Of a stretch of DNA of 64,000 nt, positions 1-49,453 are shown one piece after another (positions within the stretch are counted from its first letter, which is position 1; each line of letters begins with the position of its first letter). Location of the stretch: the IMG/VR virus record IMGVR_UViG_3300042992_000089; one strand, written 5' to 3'. A program made the translations under genes and the position numbers. The notes below the pieces were generated by a model. That model saw only the letters and a list, made by a program, of their open reading frames with translations, made no database searches and was not told the origin of the DNA. Source of the stretch: a virus. Lineage: Duplodnaviria > Heunggongvirae > Uroviricota > Caudoviricetes.

Positions 1-2
1 CA

Positions 3-7264: not shown

Positions 7265-8283
7265 AAGTTGTTGTATGCGTTTATATATAATTGTCTTGTT
7301 CTGTCTGATGTATATCCTTCATTAATCTTCAGTATGTTATAATAATACTTAGCCAAGATTTTAGCTACATTGTCCCAGCTATATTCTTCACGTCTATCTA
7401 ATATAGCCTGTCTACGTTCTTCATAGTTGTGTATTACATTTACAATACCATCTACCACAGACTCTGTTGTAATTTTATTAATCACATGCATACCAGGGAT
7501 AGGTTTACTACCTCTATAAGTTCCCACAATAGGAACTCCACATGCTGTAGCTTCCATCAATGTTAGATTAGGATGTCCTGCTTCTAGCATAGATGGATGT
7601 ACAAAGATTGTACTAGATCTGTATAACTCTCTAGTCTCATCATCTGTAGGGTTTGTTAACTTTAAAGTTAACTTTGGATAATCCAATAGCTCAGAATGTA
7701 TCTCAAAGAACTTGTTGTTATCAGGATGCCCAGCTATTGTAATAGGTAGGTTTAATAACTTAGCTGCTTCTATACCAAATCTAAATCCTTTTCTATCATA
7801 TCCAGAATCACCTGCTAATCCATTGTTAGCTAACATTAATAAAGAGTGTGGTCTTGGTGCATAGTCAGGAGTAAAGAATTCTGTATTAGCCCCATGTGGT
7901 AGATAGAATAATTTATCTGTAGCATCAAAGTAATCTATAAGATATTCAGCATGCGTAAAAGATATAATGCTATGCTTCATAGCCTCTAGGTTTTGCTTAA
8001 ACACCCAGCTATCTTTACCATACCATTCTGTGTGGTGATCATGTAGAGAGTATACATAAGGTATACCTTTATCTCTACAATATAAAGCTTGATTAGCTAA
8101 ATGAGCATGAACAATTGTGTTAGGCCATTTCTCTAAGTCATTCATATATTTAACATCTACAACATGTCCTTGTTTCTCAAGGGCAACCTTATATTCCCAT
8201 GTAAGCCTTTCAACAGCTCCCCATCCATTTGGTGGTATGGTGATTAGTCCTGTTGCTACATGTACTGATTTTATTGGTTCCAT
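7261..8283 (-). CDS. Glycosyltransferase family 4 (GT-B fold)
   Basis: The C-terminal MEATACGVPIVGT matches the GT4 E-x7-E/ACG motif, and the N-terminal domain is typical of GT4. Confidence 0.7.
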   Translation of the reverse strand: MEPIKSVHVATGLITIPPNGWGAVERLTWEYKVALEKQGHVVDVKYMNDLEKWPNTIVHAHLANQALYCRDKGIPYVYSLHDHHTEWYGKDSWVFKQNLEAMKHSIISFTHAEYLIDYFDATDKLFYLPHGANTEFFTPDYAPRPHSLLMLANNGLAGDSGYDRKGFRFGIEAAKLLNLPITIAGHPDNNKFFEIHSELLDYPKLTLKLTNPTDDETRELYRSSTIFVHPSMLEAGHPNLTLMEATACGVPIVGTYRGSKPIPGMHVINKITTESVVDGIVNVIHNYEERRQAILDRREEYSWDNVAKILAKYYYNILKINEGYTSDRTRQLYINAYNNL

Positions 8284-8945
8284 TTGGTTCTAAATTTAAT
8301 TTCATCAATTCTAAACTTCCTTTCTTTCTCTTCACTCATACCTCCCACATTTAATGTTTCCATATGACAGACAATAGAATGTCTTACAAGAGCATGTTTA
8401 ATACCAGCCTGCTTTAGTCTTTCTGCATAGTCGTTGTCTTGATAGTACATATCAAACAACTCATCAAATGGTAAGATCTTATCTAGTGCAGACTTCTTAA
8501 TCACTGTACACCAACCTTGTAATGCTTCTGTCACAGCATAAGATTCATGATACTTACTATCAGTTCCTACAAAATGATTAGGGAACCATCTAGCATATAA
8601 CAATGGGTCTTTAGGAGAGAATGCTTCTATGTCTTCTCTGTAGTCATGTACCTTCATCATCTCTGAGAACCACCATCTTTCATAAGCTACATCATCATTA
8701 GATATAACCACCCAATCACCTTGGCAATATGTAAATGCTATGTTTAAAAACTTGTTGTAGTTAAAAGAATTCTCAGGATGTATATAGTTATGAATACGTG
8801 CATACCTATTTGGATCTTGTGTACCTGAGTCTACTAATTGCACACGAAACCTAAAGTCAATCTCACTATCATGCAATGTATCTATTGTACGTTGTGTCAG
8901 AGCCACATTAGTGCTATCTGTTAATATGATTACATCTATTGTCAT
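8271..8945 (-). CDS. Glycosyltransferase, GT-A fold (GT2-like)
   Basis: VVISNDDVAY is a DxD-like motif in a roughly 220-aa GT-A sized protein. Confidence 0.5.
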   Translation of the reverse strand: MTIDVIILTDSTNVALTQRTIDTLHDSEIDFRFRVQLVDSGTQDPNRYARIHNYIHPENSFNYNKFLNIAFTYCQGDWVVISNDDVAYERWWFSEMMKVHDYREDIEAFSPKDPLLYARWFPNHFVGTDSKYHESYAVTEALQGWCTVIKKSALDKILPFDELFDMYYQDNDYAERLKQAGIKHALVRHSIVCHMETLNVGGMSEEKERKFRIDEIKFRTKWNQ

Positions 8946-11605: not shown

Positions 11606-12301
11606 TTATGTAAATCTCTTTTTGTATGGATTATCAATTGTCTGATCTTCTACTGTAATATTTAAAAAGTTAAAACCTTGTAATGGACCACTAAGATACC
11701 CTATCTTGCCTGAAAAAAAAGTATTAAATGCAAGGCTTATTCTAGTTTTATCATCACTTGTTGTTGGAACACTATGTTCTGTAGTAGATGGGAATAGAAC
11801 AATATCTCCTTTATTTACAGGGAAATAAGCTTCAACACAAGTATACATGTTTTGTTCTTTTGCCTGTATTTGTAAATTATTAGGCAATGCTCTTCCAAAC
11901 ATTATCTTATCTGTATTCTTATCTGCATTGAAATATAAACATCCACTAATTATACTGTTTGGATGATGGTGCTGATGATGTGATTGTTCTTTCTTTGTGT
12001 AATTAAACCAAGACTGAGTTATAGATAATTTAAGTCCTTCTGGATTTATAGGATTATACACGTTTATCAAGTAATCATTAAGAATGGACTCAATGAATAG
12101 TTTTACATTACTAAGTTTAGGATTGTTTAAAACATACAAATTGTGTGTTGTAGAGTTTGATGAATTTCTAAATACATCACTTTCATACTCATATGCACAT
12201 TCTATTTCTTCATTAGTAAAGTCTCTATTGATGTTATTTAATAAAACAGGGATAGGGAAGATTGGTACTATTACTCCTCCTTGGTTTTGTTGTTCTGACA
12301 T
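11606..12301 (-). CDS. 2OG-Fe(II) oxygenase (TIGR02466-like family common in marine phages)
   Basis: The pattern HHQHHHPNSIISGCLYF ... GDIVLFPS ... H ... RISLAFN matches the conserved H..HPxS..SG.YY / FPS..xH / RISISFN signature of that family. Confidence 0.6.
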   Translation of the reverse strand: MSEQQNQGGVIVPIFPIPVLLNNINRDFTNEEIECAYEYESDVFRNSSNSTTHNLYVLNNPKLSNVKLFIESILNDYLINVYNPINPEGLKLSITQSWFNYTKKEQSHHQHHHPNSIISGCLYFNADKNTDKIMFGRALPNNLQIQAKEQNMYTCVEAYFPVNKGDIVLFPSTTEHSVPTTSDDKTRISLAFNTFFSGKIGYLSGPLQGFNFLNITVEDQTIDNPYKKRFT

Positions 12302-12302
12302 A

Positions 12303-13229
12303 TTATAAATTATTATTGATTGCGTGAATTACTTGTTCTACAGATGGATGACATTCAAAAGTTTCTTTCTTCTCTAAGCATCCTATTAATGGTTGTACAT
12401 AATCTATTGTTGGCCAATACTCAAGAGCATATTTCATATTAGAATTACAATGTAATCCACAACCTCCTCTTACATATATGTGCTTGCCTTCTTGTCTATG
12501 TGGTGTACGAAACTCTGGATTGATAGGAGATCCTAACTCAACAATGTCAGTTTTGGTTGTGCCTGCTAGATGTAGAATACCTGAGTCCATGGTGATAACA
12601 ACCTTAGCATTGTTAATGAGATGCCAAGTTTGAGCGATGGATGTCTTATTCATAAGGTTTATAACGTTATCGTCCATCTTATGTACAGGTTTGTTTACAT
12701 TAAAGAATCCTGTCTCAGAACTATCCTTACCAACTGCCACCACTTTGTAGCCCCATTTATTTAATTCATCAACTAGTTTAAGCCAGTTCTCTTGTGACCA
12801 AGTTCTATTGGGCCAGCTATTAACAGGATGTATCACAGCATATCTACCCTCTACAGAAACATTAGGTTCTTCTGTAGGCTGATAGAAACATTCTAATTCA
12901 TCTTTTCCAAGCATAAATCCTAGATGTATAGCATGGAACTGCCTAATATCCATCATGTTGTGCTTCATCTCTATACCACGCTCATCTTTCTTACCCACTA
13001 GATAGAATGAATTATGTATAATGTAATTACTTTGTATGTACGTCATGTCTATAGAGCTAGCTTTGTAGCTCTTTTCTACATAAGGGTTCATCTTAAACAA
13101 CTCAGGCATCTGAGAGATGACTATAATCTTTCTTTGATACGCATCATGAAGCTTTTTAATAGTGGGGGTGGCACAGATAAGATCACCCAATCCATTACAT
13201 TCTTCTAGATTTAAACAAACTGGTTTCAT
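12303..13229 (-). CDS. Glycosyltransferase family 9 (ADP-heptose:acceptor heptosyltransferase-like)
   Basis: GLGDLICATPTIKKL, WPNRTWSQENWLKLVDEL..GYKVVAVG and VITMDSGILHLAG are the classical RfaC/RfaF-type GT9 motifs. The track ORF begins at a TTG at 13391 with a junk N-terminus. I place the start at the ATG at 13227-13229 (MKPVCLNLEEC...). Confidence 0.75.
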   Translation of the reverse strand: MKPVCLNLEECNGLGDLICATPTIKKLHDAYQRKIIVISQMPELFKMNPYVEKSYKASSIDMTYIQSNYIIHNSFYLVGKKDERGIEMKHNMMDIRQFHAIHLGFMLGKDELECFYQPTEEPNVSVEGRYAVIHPVNSWPNRTWSQENWLKLVDELNKWGYKVVAVGKDSSETGFFNVNKPVHKMDDNVINLMNKTSIAQTWHLINNAKVVITMDSGILHLAGTTKTDIVELGSPINPEFRTPHRQEGKHIYVRGGCGLHCNSNMKYALEYWPTIDYVQPLIGCLEKKETFECHPSVEQVIHAINNNL

Positions 13230-13246
13230 CTGTTGGTTATTTAAAA

Positions 13247-13263
13247 CAAAGTTACTATATTTG
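13247..13263. promoter_or_regulatory. Divergent candidate promoter pair (TAnnTTTG boxes on both strands)
   Basis: TAACTTTG on the minus strand at 13254..13247 lies 17 nt upstream of the GT9 ATG. TATATTTG on the plus strand at 13256..13263 lies 24 nt upstream of the ATG at 13288. This is a strand-switch point. Confidence 0.4.
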
Positions 13264-13287
13264 TTGGAAATAAAAAACATTTTTACT

Positions 13288-13656
13288 ATGAAAATTGAAG
13301 TTTCTGTGGGGGAAGTTGTAGACAAATGGACTATACTTTCTATCAAAGCTCTGAACATTACAGACAAAGACAAACTAGTTAATGTTTTCAAAGAGAAAAC
13401 TTATCTAAATGATGCTGTACATCCTGAGATATTACATGATCCTTTGACAGACATGTTGCTTGAAGTTAATAAAGCTCTTTGGAAAGTGGAAGATCTTATA
13501 AGAGACTTTGAAAGAGCTAATAGTTTTGGAGAAGAGTTTATTGATTTAGCTAGATCTGTCTACAAGTTGAATGATAAAAGAGCACATATTAAAAAAGAAA
13601 TTAATATTAAGTATGGGTCTGACTTTGTAGAGGAGAAATCCTACCAGCCCTACTAA
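13288..13656 (+). CDS. Hypothetical protein
   Basis: This is an ATG-initiated ORF. The track version starts at a GTG at 13162 that overlaps the divergent promoter and is probably an over-extension. Confidence 0.5.
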   Translation: MKIEVSVGEVVDKWTILSIKALNITDKDKLVNVFKEKTYLNDAVHPEILHDPLTDMLLEVNKALWKVEDLIRDFERANSFGEEFIDLARSVYKLNDKRAHIKKEINIKYGSDFVEEKSYQPY

Positions 13657-19054: not shown

Positions 19055-19294
19055 ATGGCCCAGAATACTAATCGCCCTCTCAAAGCCTATGTACGCTTTG
19101 ATGGTACTGGAAGAATCGTTCCAAGTAGCCTAATTCTAAGAAGAAAGAAACCAAAAGTGGGTAAGTGGGTAGAGATCCCAGCTTATGAATGCTGCAATTA
19201 CGTTCCTACCACTACCACTAGTACAAGTAGTACTACAACAACTACTACTACAGCTACTCCTACAACAACAACAACTACAACTGAACCTCGTTAA
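19055..19294 (+). CDS. Small protein with a conserved core and a poly-Thr/Ser tail (paralog A)
   Basis: It reads LKAYVRFDGTGRIVPSSLILRRKKPKVGKWVEIPAYECCN followed by TTTTSTSSTTTTTTTATPTTTTTTTEPR. Confidence 0.55.
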   Translation: MAQNTNRPLKAYVRFDGTGRIVPSSLILRRKKPKVGKWVEIPAYECCNYVPTTTTSTSSTTTTTTTATPTTTTTTTEPR

Positions 19295-19306
19295 AATTAA
19301 ATAAAC

Positions 19307-19552
19307 ATGGCAAATAGCAATAATAGATTAAAAGCATATGTACGTTACGATGGTACAGGACGTGTCATAGCAGGTAGTTTGATCTTACAAAGATTCAAAC
19401 CAAAGGTTGGTAACTGGCAAGAGATAGATGCAAATGAGTGTTGTAATCCTCCTACTACAACTACAACATCTACTAGTAGCACAAGTACAACTACTACTAC
19501 TACTAGCACTTCTACTAGCACAACTACCACAACAACAACTAGTCCTGGATAA
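19307..19552 (+). CDS. Small protein with a conserved core and a poly-Thr/Ser tail (paralog B)
   Basis: It reads LKAYVRYDGTGRVIAGSLILQRFKPKVGNWQEIDANECCN followed by a 40-aa T/S tail ending SPG. It is a tandem duplicate of the previous gene. Confidence 0.55.
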   Translation: MANSNNRLKAYVRYDGTGRVIAGSLILQRFKPKVGNWQEIDANECCNPPTTTTTSTSSTSTTTTTTSTSTSTTTTTTTSPG

Positions 19553-23451: not shown

Positions 23452-24087
23452 TTAGTCTATTATATCATTTGTACCAAACATTGGTACATGCATAATTCTA
23501 TAAGATAAATTGGTACTTTTTGATTTTTCTCCTTTCCCTTCTTTTGACATACCATATATAAATTCCCAGTCGTGTCCATATATTGGTAAATGTTCTGGTA
23601 ATTTTTTGGCTAGTTCTGTTGTTAATATTATTTCACTATGACCTATTTCACAATTAGCAAATTTTGACACTCTAGCTTTATTAATAGGATCTATGAAGGA
23701 GTCAAAGAACATATAATCTAAATTGGTATTTTCTATTTCTAGGTAATTACTAAAATGACTACTAAGTATAATATCATCATTTGCATAGAATATAAAATAT
23801 TTACCTGTAGCATTTTGTATTGCATAGTTAATTAATTTATATCCACATCCTCCTCCATTTTCTTTAGCATTAAAGAAATGAATAATGTTTCCTTTTTTTT
23901 CTTGTTCCTCTTTAATAGATTGTAAATATCCACTATCAATAAGTTTTTGAAAATCTGGACAACAGTCTCCCATTATAAAGGCTTCCCAATTATTAGTATC
24001 TTGGTCTAATATACATTGTATAGATCGTTTGGTTCTCTCAGGTCTACCATAACAAGCCATACTAATTGTTATTCTTGGCTGCATCAT
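23452..24087 (-). CDS. Glycosyltransferase family 2 (GT-A)
   Basis: ISMACYGRPERTKRSIQCILDQD and FYANDDII are GT2-like N-terminal and DxD motifs. Confidence 0.6.
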   Translation of the reverse strand: MMQPRITISMACYGRPERTKRSIQCILDQDTNNWEAFIMGDCCPDFQKLIDSGYLQSIKEEQEKKGNIIHFFNAKENGGGCGYKLINYAIQNATGKYFIFYANDDIILSSHFSNYLEIENTNLDYMFFDSFIDPINKARVSKFANCEIGHSEIILTTELAKKLPEHLPIYGHDWEFIYGMSKEGKGEKSKSTNLSYRIMHVPMFGTNDIID

Positions 24088-24556
24088 TGTTTCCTATGTG
24101 TTTTACAGGCACTCCTGCATATTTTTGATAAGATTCGAGTTTACTTTTTTTAATAACTACACTATTCATGCCAATCATAATTCCTTCTGGTAAGGTTGTT
24201 TTTTGATGAATAGCTGCTCCCATACCAAGGTTCACTTTATTTCCTACAGTACAAAATCCAGCTAATTTAGAACCAGCACTCATAGTTACACTAGACCCAA
24301 GAATACAATCATGAGCTACATAAGCATGTTTCATAAGATAACAATTATTACCAATTACAGTTTGTCTTTCTGCTCCTGAATCAATAGTGACCATTCCAGT
24401 AAGTATAGTACCACTTTTAATTAAAACACCTTTATCTTCATTCTCTTTACCTTTCCATTCAGGTGGCATTCCTATAACACAATAAGGACCTATGTATACA
24501 TCGTCCTCTATTGTAACGTTATTGCCAATAACAGCTGTACTATGTATTGTTTTCAT
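24062..24556 (-). CDS. Hexapeptide-repeat (left-handed beta-helix) acyl/acetyltransferase
   Basis: It has tandem [LIV]-G-x-x-x-x hexapeptide repeats (VIGNNVTIEDDVYIGPYCVIG ... TVGNKVNLGMGAAI). Confidence 0.7.
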   Translation of the reverse strand: MKTIHSTAVIGNNVTIEDDVYIGPYCVIGMPPEWKGKENEDKGVLIKSGTILTGMVTIDSGAERQTVIGNNCYLMKHAYVAHDCILGSSVTMSAGSKLAGFCTVGNKVNLGMGAAIHQKTTLPEGIMIGMNSVVIKKSKLESYQKYAGVPVKHIGNNDAAKNNN

Positions 24557-25295
24557 TACAGAAGTCTTTTAACATTTTAATATAATCCTTTTCCCAATAA
24601 GGAATAAGGTGAATGTTTCCTGTAGGAACTCTTCCCATAGTTCTTTCTCTTTCAATATGAGCACTATGTCTTTGAATAGCATTAAGTTTCCCAGGTTGAT
24701 CATGGCCCTGTCCACTCATGTGATATCCTCTTCCTCCCCACATATAGAACCAGCTAGCTTCTTCTTTAGGTGGTTTGGCAAATAGTCTACCTCCATGGAT
24801 GTGTAGTCTTTCAATGAAAGTCATATCATATCCAGCATTTTCAAGAGGATGTCCTCCTATTGCTTTCCAAGCTGATTTTCTAAAGACAATACCAGAGTTA
24901 CCTATCCAACCAACATTCTCAATACCTGTGACATGACATAAGACTCCTGTCTCCCAATGAAGAATGTTAACTTCTTCTGTCATATACTTAGCTACGTTCT
25001 TTAAATGATTTGGTAGGGCTACATCATCATCGTCCCATTGACATATAATTTCTCCTTGACATAGTTCTGTAGCATAGTTTTCCTTCTCTCCTATAGTGAT
25101 AAATGTCTCAGACAAATTAACTATCTTAATTCGAGGATGCTCAAATATAAGAGTTTGTAAAGGGTAGTCATTAACTATGATGAGTTCACATTTATCTGCA
25201 GGATAGTCCTGCTTGAGGAAAGATTCAATGCTCTCCTCAAGCGTAGCCACCCTCCCATAAGTTATACATTTACATGATATAAATGGATATTCCAT
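24540..25295 (-). CDS. Glycosyltransferase family 2 (GT-A)
   Basis: ISCKCITYGRVATLEESIESFLKQDYP and QWDDDDV (a DxD) are GT2 motifs. Confidence 0.65.
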   Translation of the reverse strand: MEYPFISCKCITYGRVATLEESIESFLKQDYPADKCELIIVNDYPLQTLIFEHPRIKIVNLSETFITIGEKENYATELCQGEIICQWDDDDVALPNHLKNVAKYMTEEVNILHWETGVLCHVTGIENVGWIGNSGIVFRKSAWKAIGGHPLENAGYDMTFIERLHIHGGRLFAKPPKEEASWFYMWGGRGYHMSGQGHDQPGKLNAIQRHSAHIERERTMGRVPTGNIHLIPYWEKDYIKMLKDFCNENNT

Positions 25296-26299: not shown

Positions 26300-26690
26300 T
26301 GTATTTCTGTTTTAATTGTTCACGTCTTTTGTTCACCTCTTCATACCTAGTTGGGTCCATCTCTACTTGGTCATGTTCTTCCCATGTCAAAAGTATGATA
26401 TTTTCTTGATCCAGAGAAGCTTCTGGGTATTTACTTTTAGGTAAAATGTGATGAAAGTATGTTGACAGTGCTTCTGATCCTAGAGACGCTCCACTAACTT
26501 CTGATTTGTGAGGTCTTTTCTTCCAGATTTGTAAGAAGAATGTTTGCATTATAACAATGTTATGCATCTCTTCTTCATACTTCTTGATAGGAGTTTTAAA
26601 TCCTTTACTAGAAGGTAATGGTTTTCTAGGTTTGTGCATAAAACAATACTCATTATCACATTTCTTACCACAGGTTTTGCACGTACTCAT
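26292..26690 (-). CDS. Hypothetical protein with an N-terminal zinc-ribbon-like motif
   Basis: The N-terminus reads CKTCGKKCDNEYCFMH. Confidence 0.45.
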   Translation of the reverse strand: MSTCKTCGKKCDNEYCFMHKPRKPLPSSKGFKTPIKKYEEEMHNIVIMQTFFLQIWKKRPHKSEVSGASLGSEALSTYFHHILPKSKYPEASLDQENIILLTWEEHDQVEMDPTRYEEVNKRREQLKQKYNV

Positions 26691-27133
26691 TTGAGACCAG
26701 TTGATCCAAAGCCTCCCTCACCTCTTTCTGATTCTTCCAATTCAGGAACAACATCAAAAGATATAGACAAGACTTCTTCAAAATAAATTTGTGCCACTCT
26801 ATCTCCTACAGCATAAGGAAAGGCTTCATTCTTACGTGGAAATGTTTCATTCCCAATAGATGTAAAGATGGCCATCCATTCACCTCTGTAGTCTGAGTCA
26901 ATAACACCAAAAGAGTTGTTTAACACCCAGTTAAACTTAGTTAAGTTACTGCGTGGAACAATGATGCCTTTGTAGCCCTTAGGTATTTCTGTCTTGAATC
27001 CAAGACCCACTTTTACTTTACCTCCTGTTTCTGTTATGCTGTGAGCATATACATCATATGCAGCAGCGTGCTCGCTACCCTTGATGGGCATGCGAGCATC
27101 TTCTGTAACTTTTTGTAGTTTAATCTTCAACAT
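26687..27133 (-). CDS. dut: dUTP pyrophosphatase (dUTPase)
   Basis: AAAYDV (motif 1), GVIDSDYRGE (motif 3) and FGSTG at the C-terminus (motif 5). Confidence 0.85.
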   Translation of the reverse strand: MLKIKLQKVTEDARMPIKGSEHAAAYDVYAHSITETGGKVKVGLGFKTEIPKGYKGIIVPRSNLTKFNWVLNNSFGVIDSDYRGEWMAIFTSIGNETFPRKNEAFPYAVGDRVAQIYFEEVLSISFDVVPELEESERGEGGFGSTGLK

Positions 27134-33770: not shown

Positions 33771-35243
33771 TTAATCAATTTTTACAATTCTCTTAGATAT
33801 TTCTTGTTTAATTTCATCAAGACTCTTAACAATTGTATAAACTTCTACAGCAGACAAAGCAGGTAAGTTGAAATCATACTTCTTAGCTTCTGCAGTGAAT
33901 CCTTGCTTAGCCTTCTCAGCTAAGTTATCTAGCTCACGCACAGCATAAGACTCATCCAACTCAAGAGTGTCAAAGTCTAAGTCATGTAAGATTTCTGTTG
34001 CTTCTTCACGTGGCACAGTCATAATTGGTAAATACTCATAGCATCTACCCTTAGACTGACCAATACCTACCACCTTCATAGGATTGATAAGTACAAGCAC
34101 GCTTGTGTCACCACAACCTACATAATGAATCTCATCACTAGTGAAGTGTAATCCTTCAGCACCACAGTCGTCAGTATTCCAACGACATGATTCCATAGGC
34201 ATATCTACTGGTCTACCAATTCTGATGTCAAATGTTCTTGTGTGAGCATCTGTATATCTATTCTCTGCTCTATTAGGCAAATCGAGATATAGCTCAGTTA
34301 AGTTACCAATCTCTTCACCATGATCTACACGAACAAGGTCTTTGTATATTCCTTGTTCATCACACTCATAACACTGACCACTATCATCATATTCTTCATC
34401 ATATTCAGGAGTTGTTCCTGAACCATCACAATAAGAACATGTAACCATTTCTTCTCTAAACATTGCGTCCATGTGAACCATTTTGTACTCACCATTTTGC
34501 AAGAAGACACTATAGTCATCTGGTTTCTTCTTCCATACAGCTTTCACTTTATTATATGCATTGGACACAAAGTCTACAAGTTCTGTACCTCCATGTAATG
34601 TCACTACGTTTCTCAAAGCTACAAAGAAGCCCTGTTTAGTGATACTAAAGCTATTCTTCTTCAAGAAGTTAAATAACTTATCTGCCACTTCAGCTCTAGG
34701 GTTCAAGCAACACCACATGAAGAATCTATGCAAAGCATTGAATTCATCATTGTCTGTGCCACCATGTCTACCTACCACTTCTAAGAACTCTTCCACTAGT
34801 AATGGAGGTAAGCTTCTGTTGATGCCTTTTAGATACAAAGCATTGTTTTTCATTTCAAATTGCTCAAGGGTAGCTAAATACTCAGCACCTCTTTGAATAG
34901 CTTTAGCTTTCTCATACTCAGCTTCAGCTTTTCTTTTCTCATCTCTAATCTCCTGTGTGCTAACAAGATTAATTAGACAAGCTTCTGTTCTACAGTCTCT
35001 AGCAGCATTGAAATCATCTGCTGTTGCTGGAGATTTAGTAATGATATTACCATCATTCATTACAATAGTCAATGTATCATTAACCATTTTAATGTTTAGA
35101 TAGGGCTTTCCTGAAGGATGATAAGAAGGGGCTACTTGCCCCTCCTCATTATCCAATTCATTAAAAGCCTGCTCAATTTTGTTTTCTACTACCTTTTCAA
35201 TTGTGCGTTCAATAGCACTCTTAAACCATTTTAAGCTTAACAT
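33771..35243 (-). CDS. Hypothetical protein (490 aa) with a Cys cluster (CSYCDGSG...CYECDEQG)
   Basis: This is a long ORF with no recognisable catalytic motifs. Confidence 0.5.
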   Translation of the reverse strand: MLSLKWFKSAIERTIEKVVENKIEQAFNELDNEEGQVAPSYHPSGKPYLNIKMVNDTLTIVMNDGNIITKSPATADDFNAARDCRTEACLINLVSTQEIRDEKRKAEAEYEKAKAIQRGAEYLATLEQFEMKNNALYLKGINRSLPPLLVEEFLEVVGRHGGTDNDEFNALHRFFMWCCLNPRAEVADKLFNFLKKNSFSITKQGFFVALRNVVTLHGGTELVDFVSNAYNKVKAVWKKKPDDYSVFLQNGEYKMVHMDAMFREEMVTCSYCDGSGTTPEYDEEYDDSGQCYECDEQGIYKDLVRVDHGEEIGNLTELYLDLPNRAENRYTDAHTRTFDIRIGRPVDMPMESCRWNTDDCGAEGLHFTSDEIHYVGCGDTSVLVLINPMKVVGIGQSKGRCYEYLPIMTVPREEATEILHDLDFDTLELDESYAVRELDNLAEKAKQGFTAEAKKYDFNLPALSAVEVYTIVKSLDEIKQEISKRIVKID

Positions 35244-35254
35244 GTTTTGCTTTT

Positions 35255-37603
35255 TTAAATTGTTTGTAATTCTTCAATTGTGTCTTGTGTCAATGTCTCC
35301 TCTAAAGGAGCATCTTCTGTTAATATGAGCTTGTAATGCTCTAGGTTTACCTTTTGCTTGTGATACTTAAATAGATCAACAATAGCTGTAATAAAAGGAC
35401 TATCACTATTTCCACTTCTGTATCCCATTCTATCTAATAGTACATTTAAGAATGGTAGCTTAGTAAACACTTCATTAACCTGATTGTAAACTATATATAC
35501 AGGTTGGTCAAACAGGTTATTTTCTTTTGCATGTTCTACAATAAGATTTTTGGTTGTACCATCAGCATAATACATACTGTTATCTCTATGATACTTGTTT
35601 AGTAGTTCTAACTTATCTGCTAGATCATTAGAAATCTCTCTAACAATTTCAATTCTGTTGAATGTTGCTTTCTTATCTTCAAAAAGTCGTTCAATCAAGA
35701 ACTCTGTAGCCATGGTTTTAAATGGTCTGTTTTTACCTTCCATAAATTTATCTATTGTTATCCAGTTATGTAAATCAGCTTTCTGTAAGTTATCTATTGT
35801 AGCTTGGGCAACAATAACAAAGTTTGCTTGTCCATTAAATACTGACCATAGTCTATCTAATTCTTTCTTATCAGACTCTTTACCATAAATGTGTAACTTA
35901 GATGACCTATGGATGTCTTCCATCTTAAATGTTGTAGGAACAAACTTACAATATTGATCAGACATATGTATTTCCATTTTTGTACCCACCTTACCAGAGA
36001 ACTCACCTTTCATTCTTATCTTCTTAGGACCCTTTATAGCTGCAACTGATATCTTCATTCTCTTAGCCTTCTGAGCATCCTTAAATGATTGTGGAATCTC
36101 AATAGCATCTACATCTATAAAGTCTTTAGCATACAGCCCCACTACATATTGAAACTCTTGAATAACTTCTCTCCATTGAGATTTTGGATACATATTAAGT
36201 CCTAATACAGAGTCATAATACTTAGCATAATCTACTTGACCAGTTTTACTTCTAAGTTTAAATGGTGATTTCTTAACAAAATATATGTGTTTATTATCTG
36301 GTAGAATAGTTCTTAGATAGTCTTGTTTACCTTTAGAAAGCTCATTTTCATAAATATATACACCACCAAAGTTATAAGCTGTAAAGTCTGACATTCTTAG
36401 ATACTCGTGATAATAATTTTTCATAGTTTGAAACTTACCAGTAAATCTGTATTTAAACTTGTATTCAGCCAAGATATACTCCTTTGATTTTACAGCAAGT
36501 CTTTCTAAATTCAGCAACTTTATGTTATCTAGTTTAGGCTGTGCTACAGGTGTAGAAGAATGAATTACAAGATCATCTATACAAACTTCATCGTCTGTAC
36601 CCTTGTACCAAGACTTAATATACTTGTTGTTTTTGCTATAGAATTGCATAATAGCTTTGATATCACTTTGTGTAGTGATGGCTTCATTAAACTTTTCCAT
36701 AAATACATTAGCCACTGTAGCTATCTTGTTAAGAATAGTTTCTTTAGCTTCTTGTGTATATCTAATAGCTTCTCTGTTTGGTGTAGGGAATAATCCATCA
36801 CTAAGACTGAATCTCAAAGCCATTTTGATACCTATTCTGCTTATGCCAAGCTTATCCCAATCAATAGGATAACTAACATTGTCTAAACAAAGATGCATGT
36901 CACTATTAGTAGCTAAGCTAGAATATTGGAAATGTTCAGCTCTGTGTATTGTGAAGTCATTGGTAACAGAATAACTACCCATTGGTTCTACATCAAAATA
37001 GACATTCTCAAAATAAGCCAATTGCTCTTTGATTTTATTAACAAAATTGTATCTATCATAGTAGGTTACAGGTACAATCACCTTTACACCATTTGGTTCG
37101 TCTGTTGCCCTTTCGTACAACAAGTCAATACTATTTGTATCTTCTCCTTCGTACATCATGTACTTACGTTCCATACCATCTTTTCTAGCTATAAAGTAGA
37201 AGCTAGAACTGTATGCCAATGGAGCCTTGAAACCAAGACCCATCATACCTAGTTCTGTGTTGCTGTTACGCTTAGTTGACTTACCATACTTACTGATGAT
37301 ATTTACTACATCATCTGCATCTAAGCCAATACCAAAGTCTTCAACAGCAAATTCATATGTATCTGCCTGATTGTTTCTCTTAAATGAAACAATGATAGGC
37401 TTGTCACTTCCAGCTCTTCTGTGACTATCTAGTGCATTGGATGCACATTCTCTGATAGTAGAGCCTATTGAATCTGAATAAAGATTCTTACTTAACATCT
37501 GCATCAGAACCTGAGCAGAATCTAAGTCTAGTGACATTTTCACAGTTTCCTGTGTGGTTCCTTCTTGAAGGATGTGTGATTCTGTTTGTTTTTCGAGTAT
37601 CAT
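35255..37603 (-). CDS. GHKL-family ATPase with an Hsp90-like N-terminal ATP-binding domain
   Basis: RECASNALDSH (N-box, compare Hsp90 ELISNASDALDK), EDFGIGLD (G1, compare DTGIGMT) and GMMGLGFKAPLAYS (G2, compare GQFGVGFYSAFLVA). The protein is 782 aa. Confidence 0.65.
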   Translation of the reverse strand: MILEKQTESHILQEGTTQETVKMSLDLDSAQVLMQMLSKNLYSDSIGSTIRECASNALDSHRRAGSDKPIIVSFKRNNQADTYEFAVEDFGIGLDADDVVNIISKYGKSTKRNSNTELGMMGLGFKAPLAYSSSFYFIARKDGMERKYMMYEGEDTNSIDLLYERATDEPNGVKVIVPVTYYDRYNFVNKIKEQLAYFENVYFDVEPMGSYSVTNDFTIHRAEHFQYSSLATNSDMHLCLDNVSYPIDWDKLGISRIGIKMALRFSLSDGLFPTPNREAIRYTQEAKETILNKIATVANVFMEKFNEAITTQSDIKAIMQFYSKNNKYIKSWYKGTDDEVCIDDLVIHSSTPVAQPKLDNIKLLNLERLAVKSKEYILAEYKFKYRFTGKFQTMKNYYHEYLRMSDFTAYNFGGVYIYENELSKGKQDYLRTILPDNKHIYFVKKSPFKLRSKTGQVDYAKYYDSVLGLNMYPKSQWREVIQEFQYVVGLYAKDFIDVDAIEIPQSFKDAQKAKRMKISVAAIKGPKKIRMKGEFSGKVGTKMEIHMSDQYCKFVPTTFKMEDIHRSSKLHIYGKESDKKELDRLWSVFNGQANFVIVAQATIDNLQKADLHNWITIDKFMEGKNRPFKTMATEFLIERLFEDKKATFNRIEIVREISNDLADKLELLNKYHRDNSMYYADGTTKNLIVEHAKENNLFDQPVYIVYNQVNEVFTKLPFLNVLLDRMGYRSGNSDSPFITAIVDLFKYHKQKVNLEHYKLILTEDAPLEETLTQDTIEELQTI

Positions 37604-37607
37604 GTGT

Positions 37608-37964
37608 CTAGTAGTTTACTGTAATGTTGAATTCTTTGAATATTTCTTTTGCTTCTAGTATTGTTTCTATTGTCTTTTGATCTGTAATGTTATCTCTGTT
37701 TAGTTTAAGAATTCTAGTATCTCTTGGTGTATTTAGAAAGTCTTTCCAAAGATGTTTAATTGTAAACTGTCCTGCTGCTTCACCAAGTTTCTTTACTCTT
37801 TCTTCATGACGTTGTTTACAATATGTAGGAGTAGTATATCTATAATACTGAACTGTACCACCTGCTCCTCTACCAAAATAAATACCAACAGTGAAGTCAT
37901 TACCATTGCTTACTGCTATTAAATCTCCTTTGTGGATGTCTCCACCATGTAATACTGTATACAT
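37608..37964 (-). CDS. Hypothetical protein
   Basis: ORF. Confidence 0.45.
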   Translation of the reverse strand: MYTVLHGGDIHKGDLIAVSNGNDFTVGIYFGRGAGGTVQYYRYTTPTYCKQRHEERVKKLGEAAGQFTIKHLWKDFLNTPRDTRILKLNRDNITDQKTIETILEAKEIFKEFNITVNY

Positions 37965-37974
37965 AATTGTGTTT

Positions 37975-38691
37975 TTAAAATGGTGTGTCTAATAACCAAT
38001 CTATTGATAGATTGTTGTTGTCTTTTAATATTGTATTTACCTTTGTAAATACTCCTTCTGTGTCCCAATCAGTCTGCTTGTAAGAAGCACTGGCTGGATG
38101 ACTTAGTGTAAAACTCCATGTGAATGGAGCAATATACTTTTGATATTTAGCTGCGTCCTTACCTAGGAAGATTACAGGTGCTCCTGTTGTTGCTAAGACT
38201 TCTTCTAACAAATACTTAGTAAAGGGTTCCCACAGATCAATGTGAGAGCCTGCTTTATTAATTTCTGTAGTCAAAGCTGCGTTATACATTAACACACCCT
38301 GCTTAGCTAGGAATGACATATCTGGTGATCTTTCACATGTTACACACAAACCACTATAAAATTCTTTCTCTATAGCATCATAGAATTTTATTAGAGATGG
38401 TTGTAATATACCTGTTGTAGAGCAACTCATTAGAAGACCATCTGCCACATATTCTCCATTCTTTATAGAGTGATAAGGACACATACCTATCATAATCACC
38501 TTCAGCTCATCATATGGTGTCTCATAGAAACACCTATAAACATTCTGAGAGAGAGGAGCAATCTTCTTGCCCCTCTGACTTTCAGATTTGAGATATTTAT
38601 AGATGTTATCACACGCTTCACTTTCAATGAAAGGTTGCATAAACCTATGCCAAGAAGGATGAAACTGATCTTTAAATTTCTCCCAATTCAT
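37975..38691 (-). CDS. Uracil-DNA glycosylase family 1 (UNG)-like protein with a Cys in place of the catalytic Asp
   Basis: VIMIGMCPYH corresponds to UNG VVILGQDPYH, GVLMYNAALT to GVLLLNTVLT, and HPASASY to HPSPLSA. I place the start at the ATG at 38691 (MNWEKF...), which abuts the upstream gene. The track start at 38766 adds 25 aa and overlaps the neighbour. Confidence 0.65.
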   Translation of the reverse strand: MNWEKFKDQFHPSWHRFMQPFIESEACDNIYKYLKSESQRGKKIAPLSQNVYRCFYETPYDELKVIMIGMCPYHSIKNGEYVADGLLMSCSTTGILQPSLIKFYDAIEKEFYSGLCVTCERSPDMSFLAKQGVLMYNAALTTEINKAGSHIDLWEPFTKYLLEEVLATTGAPVIFLGKDAAKYQKYIAPFTWSFTLSHPASASYKQTDWDTEGVFTKVNTILKDNNNLSIDWLLDTPF

Positions 38692-38692
38692 G

Positions 38693-39454
38693 TTAAAATA
38701 TTGATAATTGATTAAATGTTGCTTCTTGAGCTTCCCATGGTGCTGTTGCAATCTCTGAGTATTCATTAAAGAACTTATGTGCTTTGATGTGACTCTCCAT
38801 CCATTGAGCTGGATGTGTTTCTTTCATAGCAAATGTTGTATAGTTGTACAACTCCCATAAGCTATCTTTAGCACCATAATCATGTGTAGGAGCTTTTAAC
38901 TCTCTACTGATGATGTTTAACTGTGTAGATGTAATGAACTGCTCTTCTAGCATCATTCTACCAACTAACTCAGCTTTGGTACGCTTGGTGATTTCTATTT
39001 GCTTCATAGACTCTCTTTGCTTTTGCATAATTGTAAATGCTTCACCTGCTTGTGCAATATATTCTACAATAGCACCTGGTGTAAATGATTGAATCTCACC
39101 TACATGCTTTCTTTTAAACGCACCAAAGTCACCTGATACACAACCATTAGAACAAACTAATATACGTGTACCAATAGCAAACTTTAATGTAAGCTGTTTG
39201 TTGTAGCTATTCTGCCAGCCAATCTGTAATTGCATCTCGCTGTCTGCTACATTGCTGATAGAGAATCTACCATTAGCAACCTGACCATCCACTGCAGAAG
39301 AATAAGTTTCTTTGTCTAACTTGAATCCTGCTTTCTCAATACTGTTTAATGTAAGATCAATCAATTGTGAATGACTCACTGGTTTATATGTACGTGTTTG
39401 TACAGGAACTGGTGTATTCATTATCAGTTCCTTTGTGGTGTTAAATGTATCCAT
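38693..39454 (-). CDS. Hypothetical protein (DUF932-like phage/plasmid replication-associated protein, weak)
   Basis: ORF immediately downstream of the primase-like gene. Confidence 0.4.
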   Translation of the reverse strand: MDTFNTTKELIMNTPVPVQTRTYKPVSHSQLIDLTLNSIEKAGFKLDKETYSSAVDGQVANGRFSISNVADSEMQLQIGWQNSYNKQLTLKFAIGTRILVCSNGCVSGDFGAFKRKHVGEIQSFTPGAIVEYIAQAGEAFTIMQKQRESMKQIEITKRTKAELVGRMMLEEQFITSTQLNIISRELKAPTHDYGAKDSLWELYNYTTFAMKETHPAQWMESHIKAHKFFNEYSEIATAPWEAQEATFNQLSIF

Positions 39455-40458
39455 TATAACAGGTTTTTACTTTTTAAATATGTTTCTATTGCTTGTAATC
39501 CATGGGCTTTTGCAAGGTCAGCCCAATCTTTAATCCCTTCTGCTAGATACTGACGTGGGACGTTAGTATATTCAAAGTCAAACATCTTTGTAATCTGTAC
39601 AGAATTCTGTACACCTACGTCATCTGCATCAAAAGATAGGATTTGTCTGTCAGAGTTAGCTTTTAGATATTCTACATTCTCATGTGAGAAACATCCAAGA
39701 CCTTCGTTCTGGACAGCACAGCTGCAGGGGAATAACTTCTTCATCACCATATAGTCTTTCTTACTCTTGTTGATGAATGCTACGCTGCAGTTCTTTATGT
39801 TCTCTTTACCATCCATTGCTGTGATAGGTACATTGTTAGGCATCCATTTGTGTTTCTTATCTGCAAATGGTCTATATATCTTCCAATACTGTCCCTCATA
39901 GAGATAGCCAAACCTGAGTTCGTTCTCTCCTAGTGGAAATCTTTGCCTATTAAGATATAGTTCTTTGATAGAATAGATATTGTTATCTCTAAGGTCTTGT
40001 ATGTCCTGGTGATACTGGGCCCAATAGTCTAGCTCATCTTGTGTAAACTTTCTAGTCTTTACTTGGATGAGAGAGTATCTCTTCTCTATCTCAGGTTGTT
40101 TATACTCAGATATAATCTTCTTATATTCTCCTGTCATCACACCTGTAGAGAAACCAAGACCAAAGTCTCTATCTATCATCTTCAAAGTATCACTGACGCT
40201 AGGAAGATTATGTAGCATTTGTACAAAGTTGAAACAATCACCACGTTTACTAGTGTCTGTATAGTCTATAAACATAAGATAGCCCAACTTGTTACCAATC
40301 ATGAATGATGGATTGTTCTCATGTCTGAATGGAGAATAGGTCACCCTATTAATCTTCCAGTCTTGGTGAGGCATATAATATCTAAATATATCATACTCTG
40401 ATATCCTGCTTAGAATAGCATCTATGGATATCTTTACTTTTCTTTCTCCACTAATCAT
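39454..40458 (-). CDS. Primase-like protein with a degenerate DnaG-type zinc-ribbon motif
   Basis: YSPFRHENNPSFMI corresponds to DnaG CPFHxExTPSFxV, but Cys and His are replaced. It sits upstream of the helicase cluster. Confidence 0.35.
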   Translation of the reverse strand: MISGERKVKISIDAILSRISEYDIFRYYMPHQDWKINRVTYSPFRHENNPSFMIGNKLGYLMFIDYTDTSKRGDCFNFVQMLHNLPSVSDTLKMIDRDFGLGFSTGVMTGEYKKIISEYKQPEIEKRYSLIQVKTRKFTQDELDYWAQYHQDIQDLRDNNIYSIKELYLNRQRFPLGENELRFGYLYEGQYWKIYRPFADKKHKWMPNNVPITAMDGKENIKNCSVAFINKSKKDYMVMKKLFPCSCAVQNEGLGCFSHENVEYLKANSDRQILSFDADDVGVQNSVQITKMFDFEYTNVPRQYLAEGIKDWADLAKAHGLQAIETYLKSKNLL

Positions 40459-46634: not shown

Positions 46635-47036
46635 TTATTTTACTTCAATGTGATTCCTACCATCATTCCAATAACTTATGTCACCATACCATACAAAGAT
46701 TTCTTCGTCTGGTTGTATGAGCTTTGTAGCAACAAACTCAAATGTGTTGCGTTCTATGTTGGATCTCCAAGCAGCGTTGGCTGTGTCTGAATGATTATAG
46801 AATGAACCAAACCCACCAGCTACCACTTGTTTCTCCCATCCTGATCCACCACCCTGTGGCCAATTGAATCTGTAATCTATGACACAAGGAGAAACTTCTC
46901 CATTCTTCATACCTACATCAAAAAAGGGACACTCTTCTATGATGTCCCCTTCAAATATTACCTTGTCTGCAAATACTCCCCAGCCATGTATGCTGCTTGG
47001 AGCCATGTAGACTTTTGTTGATTGATAGATACGCAT
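46635..47036 (-). CDS. SET-domain protein (putative protein lysine methyltransferase)
   Basis: HGWGVFADKVIFEGDIIEECPF is the N-SET/GxG region, FYNHSDTANAAW matches NHSCxPN, and EEIFVWYGD matches ELxFDY. At 133 aa it is the size of minimal viral SET proteins. Confidence 0.6.
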   Translation of the reverse strand: MRIYQSTKVYMAPSSIHGWGVFADKVIFEGDIIEECPFFDVGMKNGEVSPCVIDYRFNWPQGGGSGWEKQVVAGGFGSFYNHSDTANAAWRSNIERNTFEFVATKLIQPDEEIFVWYGDISYWNDGRNHIEVK

Positions 47037-47311: not shown

Positions 47312-47501
47312 TTACTTCATCCCAGTATTGTGGATCATTATCTAGTCCAGAACCCATCCACATATCTTTGGCTTTTGTATCCATTATTTCATGTGCTGTT
47401 AGCGATGCACAGTCTGCTGCTTTATATATATCTCCAACTATGGATAAATGATTGAGTACGAGATATGCTGCTTTTACTTTTGCTTCCATTGTGTGTCTCA
47501 T
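47277..47501 (-). CDS. Hypothetical protein
   Basis: ORF. Confidence 0.4.
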   Translation of the reverse strand: MRHTMEAKVKAAYLVLNHLSIVGDIYKAADCASLTAHEIMDTKAKDMWMGSGLDNDPQYWDEVIEEIKKHGKDK

Positions 47502-49453
47502 TAGAATAAACTCATTTGATTAGGATTAACAATAACTTTACGTTTCTTACCTTCTAGTTGTATCTTGTGTATTATGCGTTCAGCACGCTCAATATAATAT
47601 GCATGATTGATGTTGTCCAGAGGATGATCTGATGTTAGATGATTACATACATGCATCACCCAATCACCTGCTTCCACTTGTGATACATCAACAGCTGTGC
47701 TATCTGAATTCTCGTTCTTCACCTTCAGTAGCTTCTCTCCTGTATTAGATACATAATATCTAATCAGCTTGTTATAGACTGTCTTCGTCTCTTTGCTGTG
47801 ACCTTCGTAATGAAAGTCTTTACTAGCTTTCTGTCTGAGACAAAAGTCATATATATTTGTATGATTGCGAATGGTATCAGCCACAGGCACGTCATTAACA
47901 AAAAAATGCTCAAGTGCAATAGGGACAACCCTAGCACTCTTATTTTTGTGTAGTTCAAAGTCTGTAAGGAAGTCACCCTTCTTTTTGATTTCGCCATCTG
48001 TTTTGATTGCTAGATAGTCATTTACTGTCGAGAATATAATCTTAGCATAGTCTGTACGTTCTAACTCATAACTGGTTAGATCCATCCACCACTTGTTAAT
48101 CTCATGCATCTTCTCAACTTTGTCTTTGTGCACCTTGATTGTCACACCATCTGTATTTGCAGATATAATGTTTATACCAGCTAATTCATATGCTTCGATG
48201 AGCATCAGAAGACTTAGTTCTCCTGTGATGGTTGTGAACATTGTGAGCTGTCTGTCATAGATCCAAGACTGCATGTCAGAAGACTTACCATAAACTGAAT
48301 TGACTGCGAGTTTGAGTGCTCCAACAATACCTTTAATCTTTTTATCCTTTTTAGCAAGAGGCTTGAGCTCCAATCTTTTATCAAACATGGTTTTGTATCC
48401 TCTAAGGAACTCAGGGCCCAAATGATGAGGATATTTACCATTATTAATAATGATAGCAGGGTAATAACTGGATACATCCCAATCCACAATAATATAATCA
48501 GCATCAGCTTCAAATATCTTAGGCTTGTTCTCTGTATGTAAGCCACCCTTTGCAAAAGTGTATATGTTGTCATAAAACTCTAATGATTCTTTAAATTCAT
48601 CTTTGATAGTTAGTTTCTCTTTGCTAATTGCTTTTAAGAACTGTTGTAGTTTTGGTGTCTGGAATGTAATGTAATCAGCAATACAATGTCTCACCTTTAC
48701 TTCAGTTCTAAACAAGCCTTTCTTTGGTAAATCAGAATATAATATGTTCTTTTCTTGACAATAGAACTTCTTAATCATCTCATCACCAATCTTACTATCA
48801 GAATAGTTTAAACATGGTATGCCAAACTCTTCTTCAATATCTTGTCTGAGCTCTATCTGATTATTGCCCTTATACAATGGATGCTCAGTTTGACCTATTG
48901 TTACCTTGTAGAACTCATAGGTAGCCATAACATCATTCTTACAATAGTCTTTAGTCAGTTGAATCTCTTCATCTGTCATGTTAATCTTTGTATGATGTAT
49001 AGGCATCTCTTCAATGTTCTCTAGATCCATCTCAAACTCTAGTCGTTTCAGTGAGACCATTCTATTCTTGTTATCATAGTGGTTCACTCTGAATACATCT
49101 ATCTGCTTAAGTGTAAGCCATTCTTCTCTGTACTCAGGAAATACATCATAGTTAGCATCATGGATAATATCAGCAGCCTTTTGTGCTATCTTAGCAGCTG
49201 TCTCAAGAGCTGTGAGCTCATGCCAGTTTTCATAGTTACGCAAGATCCACTCAATCACTTGAGAGTCAAAGCGTAAGTTATTATAACCAACCCAATAGTA
49301 TTCAGGATGTTGTTCAATAAATCTCATATACCCATCTAGTTGGTTCTTATCCTTACTCACTTCAAACTCTGTATAAGTTTTGCTCCCAGGATTATATATG
49401 CCAATGAGGAATAACTCCTGCATTGTCTCAATATCATAGATGAGTATATTCAT
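47501..49453 (-). CDS. Family B DNA polymerase with an N-terminal 3'-5' exonuclease
   Basis: YDIET is Exo I, DWDVSSYYPAII is motif A, KLAVNSVYGKSS is motif B (KxxxNSxYG) and ISANTDGVTI is motif C. The protein is 650 aa. Confidence 0.85.
   Translation of the reverse strand: MNILIYDIETMQELFLIGIYNPGSKTYTEFEVSKDKNQLDGYMRFIEQHPEYYWVGYNNLRFDSQVIEWILRNYENWHELTALETAAKIAQKAADIIHDANYDVFPEYREEWLTLKQIDVFRVNHYDNKNRMVSLKRLEFEMDLENIEEMPIHHTKINMTDEEIQLTKDYCKNDVMATYEFYKVTIGQTEHPLYKGNNQIELRQDIEEEFGIPCLNYSDSKIGDEMIKKFYCQEKNILYSDLPKKGLFRTEVKVRHCIADYITFQTPKLQQFLKAISKEKLTIKDEFKESLEFYDNIYTFAKGGLHTENKPKIFEADADYIIVDWDVSSYYPAIIINNGKYPHHLGPEFLRGYKTMFDKRLELKPLAKKDKKIKGIVGALKLAVNSVYGKSSDMQSWIYDRQLTMFTTITGELSLLMLIEAYELAGINIISANTDGVTIKVHKDKVEKMHEINKWWMDLTSYELERTDYAKIIFSTVNDYLAIKTDGEIKKKGDFLTDFELHKNKSARVVPIALEHFFVNDVPVADTIRNHTNIYDFCLRQKASKDFHYEGHSKETKTVYNKLIRYYVSNTGEKLLKVKNENSDSTAVDVSQVEAGDWVMHVCNHLTSDHPLDNINHAYYIERAERIIHKIQLEGKKRKVIVNPNQMSLF

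Follow-up and report, generated by a model that had tools for sequence, protein, structure and literature searches.

A family-1 uracil-DNA glycosylase homolog with Cys in place of the catalytic Asp in the replication module of a crAss-like phage

The window analyzed here, a 64,000-nucleotide stretch of DNA from the Caudoviricetes virus record IMGVR_UViG_3300042992_000089 of IMG/VR, encodes a homolog of the family-1 uracil-DNA glycosylase (UDG) known as UNG, in which the catalytic Asp is replaced by Cys. The gene (hereafter the UNG-like gene) is located on the minus strand, a detail left unstated in an initial annotation that had correctly placed it at positions 37975 to 38691, and encodes a protein of 238 aa with the N-terminus MNWEKF. 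A longer open reading frame (ORF), extending to position 38766, was rejected since it overlaps the upstream gene, the end of which lies at position 38693; the start at position 38691 is backed by more than 100 homolog clusters with lengths of 238 to 239 aa. The gene and its active-site features are as follows.

37975..38691, minus strand: UNG-like gene, 238 aa, family-1 fold, catalytic Asp replaced by Cys (homology searches, alignments, AlphaFold2 model, Foldseek)
38470..38487, minus strand: water-activating loop, G69-M-C71-P-Y73-H74 (sequence and alignments)
38479-38481, minus strand: codon of Cys71, TGT (read directly in the sequence)
38281..38301, minus strand: uracil-specificity motif QGVLMYN137, the equivalent of LLLN, with an invariant Asn (alignments)
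38080..38100, minus strand: His loop H198-P-A-S-A202-S-Y204, the equivalent of HPSPLS, with the His retained and Ala in place of the Leu wedge (sequence and alignments)

The UNG-like protein is a full-length homolog of family-1 UNG, with homology far above chance. A phmmer search against the PDB returned Coxiella UNG as the top match (E = 1.3e-17) and 40 or more UNG structures with E-values below 1e-5, and five UNG equivalog models of NCBIfam match the protein from end to end (3e-35 to 1e-22); the Pfam UDG family PF03167 (1.2e-6) was the only significant Pfam match, and in PHROGs the protein is assigned to phrog_12143, a family of "unknown function." With E. coli Ung and human UNG it shares the full-length fold, 24 to 29% identity, and the order of all five motifs. 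While a first AlphaFold2 model, built from a shallow alignment, had a predicted local distance difference test (pLDDT) score of about 55 at residues 71 to 90, a deeper alignment resolved the active-site loop and yielded a model with a pLDDT of 97.5 and a predicted template modeling score of 0.93. This model matched many UNG structures in Foldseek, with template modeling (TM) scores of 0.78 to 0.86 and root-mean-square deviations of 2.5 to 3.0 Å; the top TM scores were obtained with DNA-bound UNGs (9lnp, 0.86; 4uqm, 0.85). The protein nevertheless scores below all curated cut-offs of the UNG equivalog models (e.g., 122 versus a cut-off of 162 for NF003592, 99.8 versus 185.75 for TIGR00628, 108 versus 223 for NF003589, and 81 versus 143 for NF003588); by the features tested it is thus a family-1 homolog and not a regular member of the family.

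Alignment with E. coli UNG places GMCPYH on G62-Q-D64-P-Y66-H67, so that Asp64 corresponds to Cys71, and places QGVLMYN137 on QGVLLLN123 and H198-P-A-S-A202-S on H187-P-S-P-L191-S. The initial annotation, which read the loop as GMCPYH in place of GQDPYH and concluded that the general-base Asp is missing, was therefore correct on this point. It had further reported all three family-1 landmarks; the loop, the LLLN-like motif, and the His motif are indeed all present, but the HPSPLS-like motif lacks the Leu wedge, which is one of three further changes that were overlooked. When residue states are judged against the family-1 motif list in PMC1936997, four elements are kept, namely the thymine-excluding Tyr (Tyr66 in E. 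coli, Tyr73 here) and the Asn of the specificity motif (Asn123, Asn137), both of which are invariant, His187-Pro (His198-Pro199), and the Pro-Ser of the Pro-rich loop (P98-S99), which is also invariant. Four are lost; in addition to Asp64, these are Phe77, which stacks on uracil (Met88), Ser166 of the Gly-Ser loop G165-S166 (Lys178 in G177-K178), and the Leu191 wedge (Ala202). Relative to family-1 enzymes, the protein also carries Met in place of Gln63 and a 4-residue insertion after PYH, and the (A/P)PPS sequence of the Pro-rich loop reads LQPS, with Gln in place of the first Pro. Two of the losses are not specific to this protein; the Phe77 column contains Met, Leu, or Phe across the phage family, and Ala likewise replaces Leu191 in phage relatives that have retained the Asp.

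A multiple alignment with UNG family 1, which the initial annotation had proposed as a check, provided no substitute carboxylate that is confined to the Asp-less forms. Just one additional acid is conserved, namely D84 (in the column of E. coli His73), which is Asp in 37 of 38 Cys, Ser, or Ala forms and in 50 of 67 Asp or Glu forms; it was rejected as a compensatory acid since it is equally present in the Asp-types, and by homology it would lie at the far end of strand beta-2. With regard to residue 71 itself, the 61 related genes compared here (i.e., the window copy and 60 genes from related metagenome and IMG/VR loci) encode Cys in 52 cases (TGT in 40, TGC in 12), Ala in eight, Ser in one, and Asp in none. 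The loop reads GMCPYH in 44 of the 60 locus genes, GMAPYH in 8, GLCPYH in 5, GFCPYH in 2, and GMSPYH in 1; among the 120 nearest clusters the corresponding counts are 102 for GMCPYH, 12 for GMAPYH, 5 for GFCPYH, and 1 for GLCPYH, again with no Asp. Within Cys clades, a change to Ala took place at least twice and a change to Ser once, and the rest of the pocket stayed the same. In 63 close homologs, G69, P72, Y73, H74, S99, N137, H150, H198, and P199 are invariant, and position 71, the single loop position at which these homologs differ, is conserved at less than 90%. Strict constraint hence applies to the rest of the pocket but not to the side chain that occupies the former catalytic position. 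Given that close relatives carry Cys, Ala, or Ser here, Cys71 is unlikely to be an essential nucleophile or metal ligand; the other conserved cysteines (C27, C54, and C90) are equally present in Asp-type relatives.

We also considered, and rejected, the possibility that the gene is a pseudogene or is decaying. The median pairwise ratio of nonsynonymous to synonymous substitution rates (dN/dS) is 0.17, both TGT and TGC are used for Cys, and across 65 related ~112-kb phage contigs the median identity to the window copy is 70.5% for the UNG-like protein, as compared to 71.3% for the primase, 71.4% for the superfamily 2 (SF2) helicase, and 49% for the rIIA-like protein. The exact window protein is present in 212 blocks of the metagenome index, and a word-indexed search identified 1237 relatives.

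An exhaustive search of 1.84 billion representatives yielded 6247 relatives, and 134 of the best 150 were aligned with E. coli UNG. The catalytic column of these 134 representatives contains Asp in 58, Ser in 21, Cys in 20, Glu in 15, Ala in 5, Gly in 5, and Asn in 4, such that approximately 30% carry Cys, Ser, or Ala; most retain Tyr66, Asn123, and His187, and most, Asp-types included, have Ala in place of the Leu wedge. This phage-type UNG branch thus shows three states, i.e., Asp/Glu forms (mostly GQDPYP), Cys/Ser/Ala forms (mostly G[LM][CS]PYH), and degenerate forms. About 20 of the 134 representatives lack His187 and other residues as well, yet persist, which points to a role of the family that is independent of catalysis. 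His is found three residues downstream of the catalytic position in 16 of 18 Cys-type representatives versus 3 of 67 Asp/Glu-types; this association may in part stem from shared ancestry. A neighbor-joining tree of the representatives was comb-like, and independent losses of Asp were not counted from it.

Some relatives encoded outside the window are fused to other domains. P0148 joins a NADAR domain (PF08719, 1.3e-14) to a Ser-type, Asp-less UNG-like domain (GLSPYH), P0135 joins a GIY-YIG endonuclease to a Cys-type domain (GMCPYH), and a Marseillevirus "NADAR domain protein" contains a UNG fold as well. Such fusions may connect UNG-like domains with the recognition of base adducts in DNA.

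The co-variation of Cys or Ser with His bears on a reading in which Cys/Ser71 and His74 would attack C1' to form a covalent protein-DNA adduct, in a UdgX-like manner, or in which the flipped base would be exchanged or modified, as by the UDG-fold enzymes of thymidine hypermodification. While this co-variation is strong, the clade with a small nucleophilic residue is large and old, and a fusion of NADAR with a Ser-type UDG-like domain exists, we consider such chemistry highly improbable: Cys has changed to Ala at least twice in close relatives with the rest of the protein conserved; Tyr73, which in UNG excludes 5-substituted uracils, is invariant; and UdgX is absent from the PDB sequence matches. 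The Cys-based altered mechanism that the initial annotation had envisaged is unlikely for the first of these reasons, given that close relatives carry Ala or Ser. A role in thymidine hypermodification of the aGPT-Pplase/AADT-like kind was not supported, as the sole significant Pfam match is PF03167, with no match to the aGPT-Pplase families, and as no hydroxymethylase or DNA kinase of hypermodification pathways was found among the scanned or pre-annotated ORFs (~91 of 112 kb).

The window originates from a crAss-like phage of a freshwater/environmental lineage with a circular genome of ~112 kb. Crass_capsid and a P22-type portal are encoded just beyond the end of the window, and giant proteins of 4145 and 1744 aa before its start; the terminase is nearest to that of Leptolyngbya phage Lbo-JY46 (40%), followed by those of Cellulophaga and crAss-like phages. 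The window maps on the public contig Ga0453912_0000011 / JBFDFY010002903.1 (111,968 bp) by offsets of +91,383 and -20,600, which together equal 111,968 + 15 bp; the window thus spans the contig ends, as expected of a circular or terminally redundant genome. The UNG-like gene lies in a co-directional block that encodes, in order, the polymerase, DnaB, the SF2 helicase, a Sak4-like ATPase, g291, the primase, a DUF932 protein, and the UNG-like protein, followed by g118, rIIA, rIIB, HNH, an exonuclease, g183, ribonucleotide reductase (RNR), RecA, and dUTPase. The members of this block that are most relevant to the UNG-like gene are as follows.

38693..39454, minus strand: DUF932 gene immediately upstream of the UNG-like gene, with 1 base between its stop and the UNG-like start
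37608..37964, minus strand: g118, a 118-aa ORF immediately downstream of the UNG-like gene, kept in 41 of 68 related loci
39454..40458, minus strand: DNA primase (PHROG, 3.5e-29), in the same co-directional block
47501..49453, minus strand: replicative DNA polymerase of family B, with motifs DVSSYYPA, KLAVNSVYG, and NTDG
26687..27133, minus strand: canonical trimeric dUTPase (PHROG dUTPase, 4.3e-46), with all five trimeric-dUTPase motifs readable

The dUTPase bears out the initial annotation, which had reported a canonical one as co-encoded. Across related loci, the gene order from the polymerase through DnaB, SF2 helicase, Sak4, g291, primase, DUF932, UNG-like, and g118 to rIIA is fixed, and the pairing of the DUF932 and UNG-like genes is kept in 61 of 68 loci. 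The slot of the UNG-like gene, from primase to exonuclease, RNR, and dUTPase, is syntenic with that in PhiCrAssBcn23, cr111_1, and phi14:2; the UDG of phage phi14:2 is degenerate (GKEPYR). The UDGs of the PhiCrAss001 type (Kehishuvirus/Lahndsivirus), which belong to cultured and gut phages, occupy the equivalent position between primase and a PD-(D/E)XK exonuclease, RNR, and dUTPase, are ~31% identical to the window protein, and share an HPA..A-type His loop without Leu; they differ in retaining the Asp (GQDPYP...HPAYYAR, as compared to GMCPYH in the window) and in their upstream genes, which show no similarity to DUF932, such that DUF932 is not supported as a Crassvirales-wide partner. Closer Asp-type orthologs are found in the same slot: P0127 (GMDPYN) and P0132 (GQDPYF) are 46.5% and 43.5% identical to the window protein, respectively, and are flanked by primase (61 to 64% identical) and rIIA (61% identical) counterparts. 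The presence of these orthologs indicates that the Asp-to-Cys change occurred in place, within this phage lineage, and, together with GQDPYP in the PhiCrAss001-type UDGs, that Cys is the derived state. Judged by sequence and gene order, the gene is thus the positional ortholog of the crAss-like replication-module UDG, with the general-base Asp lost in this lineage.

Three other genes of the block deserve mention. Genes for an rIIA-like protein (782 aa, GHKL ATPase; PHROG, 2.3e-56) and an rIIB-like protein (490 aa) lie downstream of the UNG-like gene at 33771-37603 on the minus strand and evolve faster than their neighbors, as the median identity of rIIA cited above indicates. A SET-domain protein (PF00856 in the pre-annotated contig; 46635-47036, minus strand) adjoins the DNA polymerase; by similarity it was found in only one of the 68 related loci, L001, which is from the same genome as the window.

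Searches for proteins that might act together with, or in place of, the UNG-like protein were negative within their scope. A profile search of the window and its flanks (~91 of 112 kb) found no second family-1-like UDG, and no Pfam match to a ligase, PolX, or AP-endonuclease was seen among the annotated neighbors of the UNG-like gene. PDB sequence searches gave no match for the polymerase and three chance-level matches only (E about 0.5) for DUF932.

The initial annotation had also raised the possibility of a decoy against a host factor. In a broader version of this explanation, an abundant, non-cleaving binder would cover uracils or abasic sites, or titrate a host factor. Replicating phage DNA would thereby be protected from fragmentation by host Ung or by a defence based on uracil or on glycosylases; Ugi and phi29 p56 have the same outcome but achieve it differently. 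A pocket kept without the catalytic Asp is compatible with such a shield, the co-encoded dUTPase suggests that the phage invests in uracil control, and an engineered UNG with the Asp and His mutated binds uracil-containing DNA tightly (PMC4756853). On the other hand, PADLOC returned no match for the UNG-like protein, which led us to discard it as a defence-system protein, and the gene is found in the fixed replication slot of the ancestral active enzyme, not in an early anti-defence region. We found no specific support for the decoy, and consider a shield or decoy very unlikely, with the reservation that this explanation overlaps largely with the one we favor, from which it is hard to separate in silico.

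We favor, with a probability of about 50%, the interpretation that the UNG-like protein assists the replisome by binding DNA, has retained a uracil pocket, and cleaves very slowly or not at all. Given the high-confidence fold, the invariant uracil-selective residues (Tyr73, Asn137, and His198), and the retention of most of the loops that pinch the DNA phosphates, DNA binding and uracil flipping would still be possible. As the carboxylate that activates the water is missing, the glycosidic bond would be hydrolyzed orders of magnitude more slowly or not at all, and the selected role would be non-catalytic, namely that of a uracil-reading subunit that travels with the family-B replicase, for which the polymerase at 47501..49453 is a candidate partner. 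A non-catalytic role in the replisome is favored by the fixed slot in the replication module, the presence of a family-B polymerase, and the persistence of degenerate relatives, as well as by our failure to find a second UDG or follow-up enzymes of base-excision repair within the scope given above.

There are precedents for several parts of this interpretation, and it is already known that viral replisomes can keep a UNG fold without need of its catalysis, as in poxviruses, herpesviruses, and N4-like polymerases. Poxvirus D4 acts in trans with a family-B replicase, has a role in replication that is independent of catalysis, and shows altered loops, with GIDPYP, no Leu wedge, and no Gly-Ser loop (PMC1936997). 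D4 differs from the window protein in that Asp68 is retained, glycosylase activity is present, and the polymerase is bound via A20, of which the window phage has no recognisable counterpart. The D4-like replication scaffold put forward in the initial annotation thus fits the location of the gene next to the primase and in a module with a family-B polymerase, but a specific sequence relationship to D4/E4 was not found. In N4-like PolA, the replicase retains a phage UDG-fold module that no longer has its catalytic residues and that has been proposed to aid processivity (PMC10201439); this module is a family-4 domain, forms the N-terminal part of a fusion with a family-A polymerase, and has also lost a helix and a hairpin, whereas the window protein is family-1-like and stand-alone, is paired with a family-B polymerase, and has an intact pocket. 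For SP15-like and Mpox replicases, the UDG has been described as scanning the template ahead of the polymerase (bioRxiv 10.1101/2025.03.26.645540), and gamma-herpesvirus UNGs have been described as replisome elements (PMC5934625). Finally, the D145N/H268N mutant of human UNG, in which the general base has been removed, binds uracil in DNA like wild type without cutting it (PMC4756853); this sensor is an engineered protein in which the catalytic His is missing as well, whereas the phage protein is natural and keeps this His.

Several observations weigh against a non-cleaving accessory, and the main rival interpretation is that the protein is still a working UDG. In such an enzyme, His198 and Asn137 would activate the leaving group, aided by substrate strain, and the backbone, His74, or Cys/Ser71 would position the water, by analogy with the MUG/TDG and UDGb families, the turnover of which is low. 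UDG families 2 (GINPG) and 5 (GLAPA) excise bases without this Asp, and loss of the Asp in E. coli UNG (D64N) costs ~5 kcal/mol and leaves roughly 1e-4 of the activity. The strict conservation of Tyr73, Asn137, His198, and the Pro-Ser loop is equally expected of a working enzyme, the modeled fold is nearly superimposable on UNG-DNA complexes, and the co-variation of His74 with the Cys and Ser forms (CPYH) would allow for an alternative water activator. In addition, the similarity to poxvirus D4 is marginal; D4/E4 chains match residues 131 to 233 only, with phmmer E-values of 0.016 to 0.06, versus 1e-17 for bacterial UNG. Residual glycosylase activity is possible. A UDG that still works, if slowly, seems to us possible but unlikely, since residue 71 alternates among Cys, Ala, and Ser in close relatives, as if no particular side chain were required, since removal of the Asp from true family-1 enzymes reduces the rate by about 1e3 to 1e4, and since the protein scores below every NCBIfam UNG equivalog cut-off and is accompanied by no phage-encoded downstream repair enzymes among its annotated neighbors.

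Other regions of the window contain features with no evident connection to the UNG-like gene. A collagen-like fibre gene at 1-1688 (plus strand), which is open at the window start and corresponds to a 686-aa protein in the public contig annotation, encodes Gly-Ser/Thr-Ser triplet repeats (GTSGSSGTS...) around two globular segments; these repeats account for the many overlapping GTG ORFs at the window start. Two islands of sugar- and oxygenase-type genes, at 5003-13358 and 23452-25295, encode GT1, GT2, and GT9 glycosyltransferases (one of 887 aa), a hexapeptide transferase, and three proteins of the 2-oxoglutarate-Fe(II) oxygenase type (PF13640, PF13759, and DUF6445). Tandem paralogous ORFs of 79 and 81 aa at 19055-19552 (plus strand) share their N-terminal half (..LKAYVR.DGTGR..KPKVG.W.EI) and have poly-Thr/Ser tails. 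Between 20568 and 23418 (plus strand), seven consecutive small ORFs encode very Lys-rich basic proteins, several with similar N-termini (MATIKKA.., MAKVKKD.., and MATAKKVKK..), which may be paralogous DNA-binding or internal virion proteins.

A literature search found no paper on stand-alone, Asp-less homologs of family-1 type UNG in phages. Databases label relatives of the protein "uracil-DNA glycosylase" or leave them unnamed, and UDG genes of phages, including crAss-like phages, are routinely annotated as such and counted as repair enzymes; yet the branch described here, which is large, old, and under strong constraint, retains the uracil pocket but no longer has the general base. We further entertain, as a proposition that is quite unlikely in this strong form, that the Asp-less, pocket-intact forms are natural non-cleaving uracil readers, i.e., "read-ahead" sensors that serve a family-B replicase in trans, or that they capture DNA covalently or exchange bases through Cys/Ser-His; either would constitute a functional class new to the UNG fold and present in many uncultured phages. 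Uracil binding without cleavage, if it holds for these proteins, would correct a systematic annotation error, would provide natural scaffolds for uracil sensors, and would mean that the recruitment of a UNG fold as a structural part of viral replisomes extends to bacteriophages whose polymerases are of family B.

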